Part shown: positions 278 through 11,047 of the stretch, piece by piece
How positions within the stretch are numbered: position 1 is the first letter of the stretch
Layout: each line of letters opens with the position of its first letter
From: an uncultured bacterium
Lineage (GTDB): Bacteria > CAZDME01 > JAYEMH01
Direction of reading: 5' to 3'
DNA: 32,686 nt
Assembly (NCBI GenBank): GCA_964506785.1
Contig: CAZDME010000008.1
Location: 1-32,686 of the forward strand
Translations under genes and position numbers: made by a program
Notes under the pieces: generated by a model
What the model was told of the DNA's origin: nothing
Databases searched by the model: none
The model's input: only the letters and a program-made list of their open reading frames with translations

Positions 278-414
278 CCCCGATCTGAGCTTTACCCCGT
301 TAGAAACCCTTATCTACCCTCAGGTAGGTCTGCCAAAAGCGTGGTGTTTATTTGCGGCGGATTATTTCTAACGGGGTTTACGAAAGCCCTGCTCTGCCAT
401 TGAGCTGCCTCAGC
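278..414 (-). pseudogene. tRNA-Thr(CGT) pseudogene interrupted by a palindromic element and lacking a normal T-loop and 3' end
   Basis: Minus strand reads GCTGAGG-CA-GCTC-AATGGCA-GAGC-A-GGGCT-TTCGTAA-A[insert]. Removing the insert plus one TAAA restores the anticodon arm GGGCT/TTCGTAA/AGCTC, then AGATCGGGG. No TTCRA T-loop or CCA follows, and position 8 is C instead of T. Confidence 0.75.
295..376. mobile_element. Palindromic MITE-like element, copy 1 (82 bp)
   Basis: Perfect 12-bp terminal inverted repeats CCCCGTTAGAAA (295-306) / TTTCTAACGGGG (365-376), flanked by direct repeat TTTA (291-294, 377-380). Confidence 0.85.
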
Positions 415-5333: not shown

Positions 5334-5801
5334 TTATTCTATCTGGCTATAAAGATTGACCATCTCAATGGCGGCTACAGCCGCTTTAAAACCCTTATTT
5401 CCTTCTTTCGTTCCGGCTCTTTCAATCGCCTGCTCAATCGTCTCGGCCGTAATCACCCCAAAAATAACCGGCAGGCCGGAATCTTGCGAGGTCCGGGCAA
5501 TGCCTTTGGCAGCTTCACCGGCAATATATTCGGCATGACTGGTATCGCCGCGGATAACTGCGCCCAAACCCAGAAGCGCGTCAAATTTTTTCCCTTCAGC
5601 TATCTTTTTAGCCAGATAAGGGATTTCAAAACAACCGGGCACCCAAAAAACTTCTATTTCTTCTTCCCTGGCGCCATGTCTTTTTAAAGCGTCGACTGCC
5701 CCGTCAATCAGCCTTTGGGTAATAAACTCATTGAACCGGCTGGCGATAATCCCGTAGCGTTTGCCCCGGCTGACCAATTCACCTTCAACAATTTTCACCA
5801 T
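5334..5801 (-). CDS. ribH: 6,7-dimethyl-8-ribityllumazine synthase
   Basis: SRFNEFIT, VPGCFEIP, GAVIRGDT, ERAGTKEGNKG. Start moved to ATG 5801 (MVKIVEG), which follows RBS AGGAGG. Confidence 0.97.
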   Translation of the reverse strand: MVKIVEGELVSRGKRYGIIASRFNEFITQRLIDGAVDALKRHGAREEEIEVFWVPGCFEIPYLAKKIAEGKKFDALLGLGAVIRGDTSHAEYIAGEAAKGIARTSQDSGLPVIFGVITAETIEQAIERAGTKEGNKGFKAAVAAIEMVNLYSQIE

Positions 5802-5822
5802 TTTTCCTCCTTCCTTCTTTTT

Positions 5823-5882
5823 CAGAAAACAGATGTCGGAAAACAAAAGCTAGAAAATCTGTTTTCGGTCCTCTGTTTTCTG
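5823..5882. repeat. Inverted array of degenerate 7-mers (CAGAAAA-type) forming a hairpin
   Basis: Left arm CAGAAAA-CAGATGT-CGGAAAA-CAAA; the right arm reverse-complements to CAGAAAA-CAGAGGA-CCGAAAA-CAGA. Confidence 0.7.
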
Positions 5883-5886
5883 TCTT

Positions 5887-7089
5887 CTAGTCTATATTCA
5901 ACAGGTGTCCTAATTTTTTTTTCTTGGTGGCCAGATAGCCTAAATTGTTCTTGTTTGGCTTTATCTCAATGGGAATACGCTCGGTTATTTTTAGCCCATA
6001 CCCTTTAAGCCCAATAATTTTCCGGGGATTATTTGTCAGTAATTTTATTTTTTTCAGCCCCAAATCAGCTAAAATCTGGGCCCCCAGGCCATAGTCCCTC
6101 AGGTCAGCTTCAAAACCCAAATGGATATTGGCCTCGACCGTATCTAAACCCTGATCCTGGAGCTCATAGGCTTTAAGCTTCGGCAGAAGCCCAATCCCCC
6201 TTCCTTCCTGCTGCATATAAAGTAGAACTCCTGTTCCCACATCAGCAATTTTTTTTAATGACTGCCGCAGCTGTTCCCCGCAATCACAGCGTTTAGAATG
6301 TAACACATCCCCGGTGAAGCATTCCGAATGGACCCGGACTAAAACATCCTCCTGGCTATTTATCTTCCCGGCCACTAAAGCGATATGGAGTGACTCATCG
6401 AGAAGAGACTGATAGGTAATCATTTGAAAATTGCCAAATTCGGTCGGAAGTCCCGTGGAGGATACTTTTTTAACTAACTTTTCCCTTTGTCTTCGATATT
6501 CAATCAAATCGGCAATAGTGCAGATTTTCAACTTGTGCCTAAGCGCAAATTTCTTAAGCTGGGGAAACCTGGCCATGGTGCCGTCATCATTCATAATTTC
6601 ACAAATTACTCCAGCCGGATATAACCCGGAAAGAACGGCTAAATCCACGGCTGCTTCAGTATGTCCAGCTCGCCTGAGCACCCCGCCTTCTTTACTTCTT
6701 AAAGGGAAAACATGGCCGGGAGAATAAAAATCCTCTTTGCGTGATTGTAGATTTAGAACCTTCTTAACCGTCAGGGCCCGGTCATGAGCGGAGATACCCG
6801 TAGTCGTCCCTTTTTTAGCGTCGATAGATGCGGCAAAATCGGTTTCCCGGGGATTAATTTGATGGCCACTCATTGGGTTGAGTCCCAGCTCGTCTAGCCT
6901 TTTGCCGGCTATGGCTAAACAAACCAGCCCCCGCCCATACTTAGCCATAAAATTAATCGCCTCAGGGCTTACTTTTTCAGCGGCTAAACAGAGGTCGCCT
7001 TCATTCTCGCGGTTCTTATCATCAACAACAATAATCATCTTTCCCTTTTTATAATCAGAAATTGCCTCAAGGATAGGCTGTCTATTCAT
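5887..7089 (-). CDS. ribBA: Bifunctional 3,4-dihydroxy-2-butanone 4-phosphate synthase / GTP cyclohydrolase II
   Basis: RENEGDL, GHTEAAVDL, VRVHSECFTGD, RCDCGEQL, QEGRGIGL, LLTNNPRK. Confidence 0.98.
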   Translation of the reverse strand: MNRQPILEAISDYKKGKMIIVVDDKNRENEGDLCLAAEKVSPEAINFMAKYGRGLVCLAIAGKRLDELGLNPMSGHQINPRETDFAASIDAKKGTTTGISAHDRALTVKKVLNLQSRKEDFYSPGHVFPLRSKEGGVLRRAGHTEAAVDLAVLSGLYPAGVICEIMNDDGTMARFPQLKKFALRHKLKICTIADLIEYRRQREKLVKKVSSTGLPTEFGNFQMITYQSLLDESLHIALVAGKINSQEDVLVRVHSECFTGDVLHSKRCDCGEQLRQSLKKIADVGTGVLLYMQQEGRGIGLLPKLKAYELQDQGLDTVEANIHLGFEADLRDYGLGAQILADLGLKKIKLLTNNPRKIIGLKGYGLKITERIPIEIKPNKNNLGYLATKKKKLGHLLNID

Positions 7090-7095
7090 TGGAAA

Positions 7096-7692
7096 TCACC
7101 TCTTCATTCGGTTCAAATGTTTTTGAACATACTTACCCAAATAATCCAGCTCCAGATTAAGCTCATCGCCAACTTTTTTCCTCCCCAGAGTGGTCTCTTT
7201 CAGCGTATAGGGGACAAGGGCCACTTTAAAAAAACCGGCTTTTATTTCGGCAACAGTTAAACTTACCCCTTCTAAAGCAATAGACCCCCGGGGAACAATC
7301 TGTTTTAACAATTCTAAATTTGTTTCGAGCCATAAATGAACTTCCTTGCTTAATTTTTGTTTTTTAATGATTCTGGCTATTCCGTCAATATGCCCCGAAA
7401 CCAGATGCCCTCCTAATCGCCCATCCAGTTTTACCGCTCTTTCTAAATTCACCTTATCTCCGCACTTCACCTTTCCTAAATTAGTTTTCTTTAAAGTCTC
7501 CTTGACTGCCTCAACCGTAAAATTACTTGAATTACACCTTACCAAAGTCAAGCAAACTCCGTTTATGGCAATACTATCCTTCACTCTTAAATCAGCTAAA
7601 ATCTTATCAGCCGTCACTTCAATCACTCTAAGGCCAAATTGAGAAGAAATCCTTTTTACTCCACCTAATTCCTCGATTATTCCCGTAAACAT
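7096..7692 (-). CDS. ribE: Riboflavin synthase (alpha chain)
   Basis: MFTGIIEE N-terminus, SIAINGVCLT, VNLERA, GGHLVSGHIDG. Confidence 0.97.
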   Translation of the reverse strand: MFTGIIEELGGVKRISSQFGLRVIEVTADKILADLRVKDSIAINGVCLTLVRCNSSNFTVEAVKETLKKTNLGKVKCGDKVNLERAVKLDGRLGGHLVSGHIDGIARIIKKQKLSKEVHLWLETNLELLKQIVPRGSIALEGVSLTVAEIKAGFFKVALVPYTLKETTLGRKKVGDELNLELDYLGKYVQKHLNRMKR

Positions 7693-8257: not shown

Positions 8258-8290
8258 AAAAATAAAAATCCCGAAGATTTCTCTTCGGGG
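8258..8290 (-). terminator. Intrinsic terminator of the FMN riboswitch expression platform
   Basis: Minus strand CCCGAAGA-GAAA-TCTTCGGG then ATTTTTATTTTT. Its 5' arm is also complementary to the aptamer 5' end (TCTTCGGGG), giving an antiterminator alternative. Confidence 0.85.
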
Positions 8291-8310: not shown

Positions 8311-8510
8311 AAATCTTCTCCCTTCTGGACTTTCACCCCGTTAGAAATCACCTTTAACGGTTACCGCCGGCAACCTATTTCTAACGGGGTTAACCATCGG
8401 CCCTGGATTCACACCAGGTCCATCCGCTCAAAGCTTCTAGCGGAGTTGCGGGCTTTCCTACTCTTACAGGACTACCGCCGGTCGGGAATTCCACCCTGCC
8501 CCGAAGATTT
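8311..8510 (-). ncRNA. FMN riboswitch (RFN element) containing a palindromic insertion
   Basis: Minus strand AAATCTTCGGGGCAGGGTGGAATTCCCGACCGGCGGT...AAGCCCGC...CCTGGTGTGAATCCAGGGCCGATGGT[insert]GAAAGTCCAGAAGGGAGAAGATTT, directly upstream of the rib operon. Confidence 0.95.
8336..8389. mobile_element. Palindromic element, copy 3 (54 bp), inside the FMN aptamer
   Basis: Perfect 13-bp inverted repeats CCCCGTTAGAAAT (8336-8348) / ATTTCTAACGGGG (8377-8389); flanks TTCA / TTAA. Confidence 0.85.
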
Positions 8511-8517
8511 CCGCTTT

Positions 8518-8545
8518 ATTCTAACACAAAAAAAAGAACTGTCAA
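8518..8545 (-). promoter_or_regulatory. Sigma70-type promoter of the rib operon
   Basis: TTGACA (8545-8540), 16-nt spacer, TAGAAT (8523-8518) with TGn extension, immediately before the riboswitch. Confidence 0.75.
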
Positions 8546-8802: not shown

Positions 8803-9464
8803 AATCTAATTACCATTCCCATCCTCGAAAGGATTATCTGAAGGCCCCAAAACATCAGAATCAAACCAGCAAAAATTTTCAAAACTTTTAAAAACTTTGT
8901 TTTTGGGATTTTCTGCGGGATGAATCCAGAGAACGCTCCTAGAACAAGCATGGGAGAAATAGTTGTTCCCAAGCCAAAGGCTAAAGTTAGAAGGACGCTT
9001 GAAATTAAATTAGTTGCCTTAATGAAAATATAGGCAAAAACAGCCATCAAAGGCCCGCAAGGGATAATCCCCATCAAAAGCCCCAGGATGAAAACCGTCT
9101 TCAGGTTATGCCTGGTCAATAATTTCCCTAATCCCGGACAAATATTTAATCTATGCTTTCCTAAAATTAGCAAAAAACCGATAAGGAAAATAAATAACCC
9201 GAAAAAAATCTGGAGTTCAAAATTAAACTGGCTTTCCAGGAAGCTATCCAGGTATATTTGTTTGCCTAAACCGAGGAGTAAACCGAATAAAATACAAATG
9301 GTAATTCTTCCCGCCGAAAAAATTAAAGTAGCCTGGAGTCCCTTTTTCCAATTTCCCGCAGTCCCTAAAACGAAGGGAAGGAGAATCGGCGCGCAAACCA
9401 ACAGACAGGTGCTTGAACCGACAAAAATTCCGCCTAAAAAAAGTTCTAAAAAATTTTTATTCAT
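8799..9464 (-). CDS. Sulfite exporter TauE/SafE / DsbD_2-like membrane protein
   Basis: About 6 TM helices with CxxxC (CLLVC), GR, PCG and AFGLGT motifs. Confidence 0.8.
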   Translation of the reverse strand: MNKNFLELFLGGIFVGSSTCLLVCAPILLPFVLGTAGNWKKGLQATLIFSAGRITICILFGLLLGLGKQIYLDSFLESQFNFELQIFFGLFIFLIGFLLILGKHRLNICPGLGKLLTRHNLKTVFILGLLMGIIPCGPLMAVFAYIFIKATNLISSVLLTLAFGLGTTISPMLVLGAFSGFIPQKIPKTKFLKVLKIFAGLILMFWGLQIILSRMGMVIRL

Positions 9465-11047
9465 CTCTTTTTTTCATGAAAAACCTGGGCGGTAAAAATA
9501 TACACCTCGGCATTTTCCCGCCAGGCCCCTCGAGGAAGTCCGGCTTTTTCACAAATTCTTTCTAAAAATTCGGCCCGGTCCCAGCCGTATTCGGCGGCTA
9601 CTTGAGGGAGAAGCAATCCAGAATAAATACCCCGGCGGATTACCAGTCCGTGTTTGCCTACTTCAATTCTATTTACATCGGCAATTTTTTCCAAAGGGGA
9701 CAAAACAGAAATTTCGATTTCAATATCCGGAAGTTCCTCCTTAGTCACCGGGGGAAAACGGTGATCTTTAAGGGCGGCTGACAGGGCTGCCTGAGAAACA
9801 GCCTGATAAAGAGGCAAAACTGCCTCGGGGAAACCGATGCATCCGCGCAACCTTCCGCTTTTATTTAAAGTGACAAACGCCCCGCCCAACTTTTTAAGAC
9901 CGTCACTTTTTACCTGAAACTCAGGGATATTCTCTCCTTCTAAAGCATTTTCAATAGATGCCCGGGCAATTTCTAAAAGAAGCCGTTGTTCTTCCTTATC
10001 TAAATCTGACAATTTTCCTTCCTCCTTTCTTACTTTCTCTGTTTTTTCTTCCCGGTAAAAAGCAATAGCGCTATAACCAACAACCCGTTCCTTATCTCTT
10101 AACCAAGGAGGGGCAGTATCTCCGGAATTGGCGTATTTTAAAATTCTCACCTTATCGGCTCCCAGCTCCTTGGCCACTTCCATAATTGTAAGTACACATC
10201 CGGCGCCGCACCATTCACATTGGCCTCTCTCAATGCTGTTATATAACCCCTGGATATCAAATCTCTTGATAAAACCGAGGCTTTTCTTATCAATAGCCGC
10301 GGCCTCTTCATAATTATGGTAATGGGACATATCCGAGCTGGCAATAAGAATAAAAGATTCCTCGGGCAGATTATTCAATATCGCCTCTTTTAAAATCTCA
10401 ACCATATCCCATTTATAACTTCCCATCAGAATCGGCACAATGGTAAACCCCGTTAGGGAATCCCCTTTTTCCCCGGCGCTAACTTTACTTGTGCTTTGTG
10501 GCCCCGACCAATTAATATTTTTTTCTAACGGGGTAAATTCATTTCCCCAAATTTTCTGCAAAAAAGGAAGTTGAACTTCAAGTGAGTGTTCACCGTAATG
10601 GGCTAAGGGGTGAGTTCTTATTTTATCGGAAAAATCCAAAAATCTCTGAGCTAATACTTCGTTAATCGGCACCTGGCCCAAAGGCGTTTCATACATTCCC
10701 CGGGGAAGAATTGAAATGTAATTATAACGAAACTGGTGGCTGGGGCCGATTAGAATTACGGTTTTTTTTGGCTTATTCTCAATTGCCTTGTAGGCATAGG
10801 CGGCTACCGCTCCAGAAAAAGTGTATCCGGCATGAGGAACGATTAAAGCAAGCACTTCTCCCTGAAGTTTTAAATCCGGTGCTTTACCTAAATAACTTTC
10901 CACTTCATTAGAAAGCTTCGCTTCTTCATCGGAATAGAATTGCCCAGCTACGGCCGGCTTCCTTATACGCATCTCCTGGGCGCCGGCAGACACTAATATA
11001 AAAAAAACTAAAATTAAAACGCTAATTGAAGTGATTAAGTCCTTCAT
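9461..11047 (-). CDS. AmmeMemoRadiSam system protein B (MEMO1-like) fused to protein A (AMMECR1-like), with signal peptide and a 30-aa in-frame insert
   Basis: RKPAVAGQFY, PHAGY, GPSH, EHSLEVQLPFLQ, SSDMSHY, VVGY (MEMO domain); then GAFVTL, LRGCIG, DHRFPP, EISVLS, GLLLPQVA (AMMECR1 domain). Confidence 0.93.
   Translation of the reverse strand: MKDLITSISVLILVFFILVSAGAQEMRIRKPAVAGQFYSDEEAKLSNEVESYLGKAPDLKLQGEVLALIVPHAGYTFSGAVAAYAYKAIENKPKKTVILIGPSHQFRYNYISILPRGMYETPLGQVPINEVLAQRFLDFSDKIRTHPLAHYGEHSLEVQLPFLQKIWGNEFTPLEKNINWSGPQSTSKVSAGEKGDSLTGFTIVPILMGSYKWDMVEILKEAILNNLPEESFILIASSDMSHYHNYEEAAAIDKKSLGFIKRFDIQGLYNSIERGQCEWCGAGCVLTIMEVAKELGADKVRILKYANSGDTAPPWLRDKERVVGYSAIAFYREEKTEKVRKEEGKLSDLDKEEQRLLLEIARASIENALEGENIPEFQVKSDGLKKLGGAFVTLNKSGRLRGCIGFPEAVLPLYQAVSQAALSAALKDHRFPPVTKEELPDIEIEISVLSPLEKIADVNRIEVGKHGLVIRRGIYSGLLLPQVAAEYGWDRAEFLERICEKAGLPRGAWRENAEVYIFTAQVFHEKKR
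10448..10533. mobile_element. Palindromic element, copy 4 (86 bp), in frame within the MEMO domain
   Basis: CCCCGTTAG(GGAA) ... (TTTT)CTAACGGGG with direct repeat TAAA (10444-10447, 10534-10537); 86+4 = 90 bp = 30 codons. Confidence 0.88.

Follow-up and report, generated by a model that had tools for sequence, protein, structure and literature searches.

Can the aptamer of a riboswitch take up a mobile element in one of its loops and still work? This question is raised by the leader of a riboflavin operon in a DNA stretch of 32,686 nucleotides from an uncultured bacterium (hereafter, the window). Sequence reading and folding identify positions 8510 to 8311 of its minus strand as a complete FMN riboswitch, with helices P1 to P6, carrying an insert in loop L6.

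The locus is a genuine FMN riboswitch. P1 is paired at all eight positions, P2 to P5 are present, P6 is formed by UGG/CCA, J6/1 contains GAAGGGAGAAG, and the whole aligns with an orthologous riboswitch in a sister genus. An expression platform and flavin genes follow: on the minus strand, the antiterminator UCUUCGGGG (8507-8499), overlapping the P1 5' strand, is complementary to CCCCGAAGA (8290-8282) in the terminator, beyond which lie ribD, ribE, ribBA and ribH, all of them open (Table 1). Judged from these sequence features, control of ribD-ribE-ribBA-ribH by transcription termination would best explain the arrangement. A promoter search returned a single site upstream of the aptamer, against 0.5 expected in shuffled sequences. 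RibD is split in this genome: its reductase domain, RibD_C, has a frame of its own (230 aa) on a different contig (C42:347-973), and the riboflavin pathway therefore looks complete. A previous reading of the window from its sequence alone had described the aptamer outside the insert, the terminator and the antiterminator complementarity as intact, and our analysis agrees (P1 8/8, terminator 8289-8270).

Table 1. Features of the FMN riboswitch locus, its operon and copies of the inverted-repeat element (window positions unless a contig, C, of the same genome is given)
Feature	Position	Strand	Basis or remarks
Sigma-70-type promoter, TTGACA-16-TAGAAT, TG ahead of -10	8518-8545	-	11/12 consensus matches
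FMN aptamer, P1 5' strand to P1 3' strand, including the insert	8311-8510	-	RF00050 match; minimum free energy (MFE) fold; orthology with the sister genus (G002)
P1 5' strand AAAUCUUC	8503-8510	-	Pairs with GAAGAUUU, 8/8 Watson-Crick
P2 and T-loop L2, GGG-UGGAAUU-CCC; docking partner L6	8484-8496	-	Rfam alignment, reading; role from excerpts of preprint 10.1101/2022.12.26.521914
P3 with internal-loop receptor and extra hairpin, UAG-UCCUGUAAGAGUAGGA-AAGC	8448-8478	-	Rfam alignment, folding, reading
P4 hairpin	8423-8444	-	Folding, reading
P5 and T-loop L5, CCUGG-UGUGAAU-CCAGG	8402-8418	-	Rfam alignment, folding, reading
P6 5' strand UGG	8394-8396	-	Pairs with CCA 8326-8328; UGG/CCA also in G002
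UUAA (TTAA), 5' copy of the 4-bp target duplication	8390-8393	-	Flank comparison
54-bp inverted-repeat element	8336-8389		Arms 8377-8389 and 8336-8348 (13/13), inner hairpin 8359-8375
Receptor loop UGAAAGU, intact; first four bases UGAA, 3' duplication copy	8329-8335	-	Reading; consensus from excerpts of the same preprint
P6 3' strand CCA	8326-8328	-	Reading
J6/1 GAAGGGA and P1 3' strand GAAGAUUU (8318-8311)	8311-8325	-	Motif also in G002 and sampled riboswitches
Intrinsic terminator, 8-bp stem 8270-8289, T-run 8258-8269	8258-8290	-	5' arm CCCCGAAGA (8282-8290), antiterminator partner
ribD, deaminase domain only, 151 aa	7720-8175	-	Open frame
ribE 7096-7692, ribBA 5887-7089, ribH 5334-5846	5334-7692	-	All open
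In-frame element copies in HPPK, HisA/F, GATase gene and after two ATGA start/stop overlaps	C28:12338-12438, C52:4001-4083, C32:9784-9836, C32:12232-12284, C32:13563-13657 (G000)		
Element copy in Memo-like/AMMECR1 fusion gene (ORF 9461-11047, -)	10448-10533		TAAA/TAAA duplication; one arm with 3 mismatches; 90 nt, frame kept
Intergenic element copy, 82 bp, arms 13/13, TTTA/TTTA duplication	295-376		Distance to the end of ORF 424-2280: 46 nt

Read on the minus strand, the two strands of P6 are separated by TTAA (8393-8390), the element CCCCGTTAGAAAT...ATTTCTAACGGGG (8389-8336) and TGAAAGT (8335-8329), which gives in the transcript an L6 of the form U-UAA-CCCCGUUAGAAAU...AUUUCUAACGGGG-UGAA-AGU. 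This loop is 65 nt long and would have 7 nt, 58 fewer, without the insert. The size of the element, its perfectly complementary 13-nt arms and its inner hairpin GGTTGCC-GGC-GGTAACC (8375-8359) are as originally described. So is the outcome of deleting in silico the element together with one 4-nt flank (58 nt in all), namely GCCGATGGTGAAAGTCCAG with a loop UGAAAGU. The flanks of this copy, TTAA and TGAA, form a 4-bp repeat with one mismatch. The T-loops L2 (UGGAAUU) and L5 (UGUGAAU) and the internal-loop receptor of L3 are present, and the receptor sequence UGAAAGU of L6 is itself intact, parted by the insert from the 5' strand of P6. The inner hairpin (8359-8375) includes a 9-nt segment, CCGGCGGTA, that recurs identically in J2/3-P3 of this aptamer (8472-8480), which may be a coincidence (about 1% by rough estimate) or reflect a locally templated filler.

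The insert is predicted to fold by itself. The isolated 54-nt element has a calculated energy of -28.4 kcal/mol, and the MFE structure of the whole aptamer recovers P1 to P5 with the insert as a separate hairpin. In thermodynamic folding, the pair probability of P1 is 0.98-1.0 with and without the insert and the other helices are unaltered; the 3-bp P6 declines from about 0.45 without the insert to about 0.30 with it. Alignment to the Rfam FMN model (RF00050) gave a mixed answer as to the placement of the insert within the aptamer. The natural sequence passes the gathering cut-off (73.1 versus 66.2 bits), but the match stops at 8369, within the insert, with model positions 108-138 laid on 8399-8369 and pairs of P1 and P6 marked as non-standard, such that Rfam does not by itself confirm the placement. 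The true 3' part of the aptamer is 8335-8311, because this segment provides the perfect P1, contains the conserved AGUCC-GAAGGGAGAAG and aligns with the sister-genus ortholog; the low Rfam score arises from the misalignment that the insert causes.

It is the sister genus (G002) that places the insert inside the aptamer, in L6, as had been proposed. Its orthologous riboswitch shares the terminator and the UGG/CCA of P6 but has a plain L6, GGUACAGUCC (loop GGTACAGTCC), which implies that the L6 element is an insertion. The same genome offers a second empty site, an HPPK ortholog without the element copy, whose absence leaves a gap of 36 aa when the two proteins are aligned. The sister-genus riboswitch (L039:1462-1640) has a peculiarity of its own, a unique 39-nt hairpin in the T-loop of L2; its Rfam alignment begins inside that L2 insert and misses the true P1 5' strand. 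In the third genome of the phylum (G001, 88% complete) no FMN riboswitch match was found even at E<=1. With a single riboswitch-bearing relative, covariation is not available for this lineage.

The insert is also found in other sequence data. Two metagenome contigs, mutually identical over the 451 nt compared, match the window by eye across the riboswitch including the insert. The insert is likewise covered by contigs of four DNA runs, which come from three studies; they show 0 differences from the window, and none bridges an empty L6. The runs listed for the locus included none of RNA. One contig joins 8289 directly to 8474; this joint most likely comes from the riboswitch of another organism, because dozens of foreign contigs stack on the conserved segment 8473-8509. 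A metagenome scan for nearer relatives yielded two contigs, both identical to the window, and no intermediate forms.

The 54-bp insert is a member of a dispersed mobile inverted-repeat family. With up to two mismatches, its 14-nt arm occurs six times in the window, where 0.36 occurrences are expected, and none of 100 shuffled windows reached six. With up to one mismatch, the whole genome (G000) has 35 matches to the 14-nt arm, as compared with two for the reversed control, and 45 matches to a 13-nt arm, as compared with seven. Across the three genomes of the phylum within our collection, each from a different genus, the arm has 35, 17 and 15 copies at the same threshold, against one or two for the reversed control. 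In this genome, the arms form 22 paired copies, 29-126 bp in length when measured between the outermost arm bases. The 4-bp direct repeats at their ends are perfect in ten copies and have at most one mismatch in 16. Their sequences vary among copies (TAAA, CAAA, TGAA, TGAG, TAGA, CTAA), the signature of target-site duplication. Six copies are intragenic, and in all of them the element plus one duplication amounts to a multiple of three (105, 87, 57, 90, 57 and 99 nt, the last two frame calls made by reading flanks). The intragenic arms translate to NPVR(N/D) and ISNGV. The Pfam Memo match of ORF 9461-11047 covers 298 residues over 267 profile positions.

The copies of this family have little in common other than their arms. 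The 13-bp arms, in many cases perfect, recur in the three genera, whereas the interiors (27-100 nt) are unrelated: those of 17 copies showed no significant mutual similarity, and those of 21 copies had no match below about E 0.02 in the rest of the genome. For this latter reason, we rejected the idea that the interiors are filler DNA copied from elsewhere in the genome. Some interiors seem to contain degenerate direct copies of the arm. Concerning the mobilising system, we searched for one transposase family, Y1_Tnp, and found two genes resembling it in the genome; no element copies flank either of them. This and the presence of target duplications led us to discard a REP/RAYT system, as Y1 enzymes are not known to make such duplications. 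Two other interpretations were also rejected. Hairpins following stop codons (SECIS-like or coupling hairpins) do not fit, as most of the preceding TAA, TGA or TAG triplets end no long ORF and belong to the target duplication, and attC-like sites would require another order of the core motifs.

What can be expected of a helix in L6 depends on the role of this loop. According to excerpts of a preprint on T-loop receptors (10.1101/2022.12.26.521914), L2 and L5 of the FMN riboswitch are T-loops with L6 and L3, respectively, as their receptors, UGAAAGU being the consensus 7-nt receptor. The earlier analogy between the insert and the helix carried by L3 is therefore well founded, L3 and L6 being the two T-loop receptors. 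The same excerpts state that a helix-bearing internal-loop receptor was never observed at L2-L6 in the curated alignments of Rfam 14.0, even though a helix there would cause no steric clash; they argue that L2-L6 needs a terminal loop owing to a demand for folding or stability, possibly folding speed, and report that internal-loop receptors underperformed in a cobalamin test system (10.1101/2022.12.26.521914). They also note that position 2 alone is missing from the shorter receptor of 6 nt, and that its contact is unimportant. The part of Barrick and Breaker (2007) that deals with intervening helices mentions them in the loops capping P2, P3 and P5 and does not name P6 there (PMC2258182). A search of the full-text literature yielded nothing on FMN riboswitches with an extended P6/L6, nor on a MITE within a riboswitch aptamer.

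Natural FMN riboswitches with long L6 helices do exist. We scanned contigs from one genome per species with a pattern anchored on P5, P6 and J6/1 that allowed an L6 gap of 35-65 nt, a pattern that the window locus itself fits, and retrieved 112 species genomes. A further case (G006) has a 57-nt insert. By record title, the matches comprise 19 Micromonosporaceae, 11 Omnitrophota, eight Deinococcus loci, about 45 Clostridia, five Anaerolineae/Chloroflexi and single cases in several other phyla. All but one of the 112 loop sequences are distinct, the hairpins are unrelated to the window element, and all inserts are predicted to fold (-8.1 to -50.7 kcal/mol). When the same pattern with a gap of 1-31 nt was applied to a broad sample of 401 genomes, 30 matched, with L6 loops of 6 nt (18) or 7 nt (12) and no inserts of 4-31 nt; inserts of 32-34 nt or above 65 nt fall outside both gaps. 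Very roughly, long L6 helices would thus occur in ~0.8% (about 1%) of pattern-matching riboswitches (112/(185,579 x 30/401)), an estimate that combines two collections sampled differently. Long L6 helices are therefore rare. The initial suggestion that the insertion had created a new aptamer variant at this locus does not hold as worded, since such helices occur in many phyla and are unrelated to the element; this goes part of the way towards the refutation named in that reading, for which they would also have to be common.

Several properties of these L6-extended riboswitches speak for tolerance of a helix in L6. A recognisable rib gene was present in the 300-400 nt of downstream flank in 57 of the 112, and a terminator-like hairpin with a T-run lay within 140 nt in 68 of the 112, compared with 10 of the 112 in shuffled flanks. 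Among 12 Micromonosporaceae sequences, compensatory changes affect five of the 19 pairs proposed by RNAalifold for the segment from P5 to J6/1, all five of them in the L6 helix. The Rfam cut-off was passed by 18 of 20 L6-extended loci (68.7-100.7 bits), one of the 18 being misaligned in the same manner as the window.

The survey also shows where the helices enter the receptor. Like the window loop (AAAGU), 78 of the 112 loops retain the 3' ending A-N-A-G-U. In 66 of the 112, this ending goes together with a 5' side other than U-purine-A, the helix replacing receptor position 2; 26 fit the canonical internal-loop arrangement URA...RA-GU. The window loop, UUA-helix-G-AAAGU, has UUA as 5' strand and GAAAGU as 3' strand, departs from the canonical URA/RA receptor and belongs to the larger, position-2 group. 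The UUA start recurs in nine other loops, and 14 combine a U-pyrimidine-A start with a kept ANAGU.

A Synechococcus MAG (L141) and a Burkholderiaceae MAG (L062) carry perfect L6 palindromes of 52-56 nt. Both are single-copy in their own genomes, so that neither of the two is a dispersed repeat; a dispersed-element origin with target duplication is seen for the window insert only. In an Elusimicrobia MAG (UBA5214, L116:393-592), near-identical hairpins of about 37 nt occupy both receptor loops, L3 and L6. Their arms (CACCCCGUAGARAGCC...) resemble the arm of the window element, and the riboswitch is followed by a terminator and ribD. In that genome, which contains two further small copies, the arm motif shows hardly any enrichment (9 versus 3).

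Taken together, these data suggest that the insert is probably tolerated as an extension of P6, with L2-L6 docking, FMN binding and control of termination all kept, perhaps with less efficiency. Its position points in this direction: like most of the natural L6 helices, it is placed at receptor position 2 with AAAGU preserved, and the hairpins of 35-65 nt found in L6 in 112 other species make the tolerance first proposed from sequence plausible. The absence of position 2 from the 6-nt receptor, and the unimportance of its contact according to excerpts of the preprint, would provide a structural reason for tolerating a helix there (10.1101/2022.12.26.521914). We envisage the following course of events. 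The transposase of the element would cut a T-purine-A-A-like target such as that offered by the receptor loop (UGAA or UUAA), inserting the hairpin just after the first U of UGAAAGU and duplicating 4 bp of the loop, so that the whole receptor sequence would survive on the 3' side of the insert. In the transcript, emergence of the 3' arm would at once allow the two arms to close a 14-bp stem; the stem would point away from the core and return the 5' strand of P6 next to the intact receptor and the 3' strand of P6. P6, the L2-L6 contact and P1 could then form, and the RNA would still dock and respond to FMN, which would favour termination at 8258.

A competing possibility, tentative but serious, is that the insert breaks or weakens the contact between the L2 T-loop and its receptor. 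P1 would then no longer be stabilised by FMN, the antiterminator would win and the rib operon would be constitutive or leaky, the riboswitch being a recently disabled relic. The 5' side of the receptor, UUA instead of the canonical URA, speaks for such a loss and against tolerance, and it might also mask the receptor by pairing with its GAA (an A.G mismatch and two A-U pairs). P6, only 3 bp long, becomes less probable with the insert; the preprint excerpts, as seen above, know of terminal-loop receptors only at L2-L6 and of poorer internal-loop ones in the cobalamin system (10.1101/2022.12.26.521914). Moreover, the arms still match at 13 of 13 positions, and if the insertion is recent, the intact aptamer sequence is uninformative about selection. 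The Rfam score of just 73.1 bits could be added to this list, but it stems from the alignment and lies within the range of the other L6-extended members. Against a broken contact stand those same 112 natural riboswitches, many with rib genes and terminators downstream and one family with a covarying L6 helix, the AAAGU that the insert leaves free as in most of them, and the presence of the insert in all contigs covering the locus in four runs of three studies.

A tolerated hairpin might, in addition, have acquired a function, its 13/14-bp arm being the target of a factor acting in trans (RNase III or a hairpin-binding protein, for instance) that would tie the processing or stability of the rib mRNA to that factor. 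The conservation of the arms in three genera around unrelated interiors and the related arm in both receptor loops of the Elusimicrobia riboswitch are compatible with it, but arm conservation is also expected if a transposase must recognise the arms, and target duplications and in-frame intragenic copies fit selfish spread better; we consider this role improbable. A more elaborate version, also improbable, is that a host factor recognises the arm as an RNA or DNA hairpin and that the element prefers the T-loop-receptor target U(G/A)AA, thereby adding a regulatory handle to a working FMN riboswitch. If this were true, a mobile element would have built a composite switch responding to a ligand and a factor. 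Finally, the genome is a metagenome bin of 112 contigs, a circumstance in which an assembly artefact or a chance palindrome might be suspected; the recurrence of the insert in two metagenome contigs and in contigs of four runs from three studies, the enrichment of the arm far over controls and the target duplications of the family allow us to discount this almost completely.

The locus is of wider interest in two respects. The L2-L6 receptor, described in the preprint excerpts as never helix-bearing and taken there to reflect a special folding demand (10.1101/2022.12.26.521914), does carry helices here and in 112 other cases. Most of the natural L6 helices are at receptor position 2 and some are canonical URA/RA. 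As terminators are often present in these riboswitches, the proposed constraint becomes testable on natural sequences. The locus can be regarded as a dated snapshot of how a peripheral helix originates, combining a mobile element, a visible duplication, an empty sister site and a probably tolerant RNA position, in a family of elements that also inserts in frame within proteins. The insert further explains why covariance models under-score or misalign such members, which is relevant to annotation.

Among known mobile elements, the family resembles MITEs in its terminal inverted repeats (13/13), target duplication, dispersed copies and empty sites in a relative, but its copies in this genome, unlike those of a MITE family, share no parent-derived interior. 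Correia/NEMIS and ERIC elements are bacterial MITEs transcribed as RNA hairpins. The element has in common with them terminal inverted repeats, target duplication, lack of coding capacity and co-transcription with neighbouring genes; it differs in the unrelated interiors of its copies and in that the Y1_Tnp search gave no parent transposase. It shares with REP/RAYT systems the dispersed hairpin repeats and the presence of two Y1-transposase-like genes in the genome, but has 4-bp target duplications and does not flank the Y1 genes. The available excerpts on Rickettsia palindromic elements describe short palindromes that occur in intergenic DNA and also within coding sequences, whose reading frame continues through them (PMC1779305). 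The present copies in HPPK, HisA/F, the GATase gene, the Memo-like gene and two gene starts behave likewise, although they share only the 13-bp arms, whereas the Rickettsia elements have their whole sequence in common within a family (PMC1779305), and the present host belongs to a different phylum.

As for the RNA, the locus has the six-helix junction with its conserved nucleotides, T-loops, receptors, expression platform and rib operon of a canonical FMN riboswitch (RFN element, RF00050; 3F2Q from F. nucleatum, cited in the excerpts of 10.1101/2022.12.26.521914), with a 65-nt L6 in place of the 6- or 7-nt terminal loop. Its L6 resembles the internal-loop receptors (URA/RA) of FMN L3, including its own, and of cobalamin riboswitches, in which an extra helix projects outward from the receptor; whereas the canonical form given in those excerpts has URA as its 5' strand and takes up the helix between positions 3 and 4 (10.1101/2022.12.26.521914), here the 5' strand reads UUA and the helix enters after position 1.
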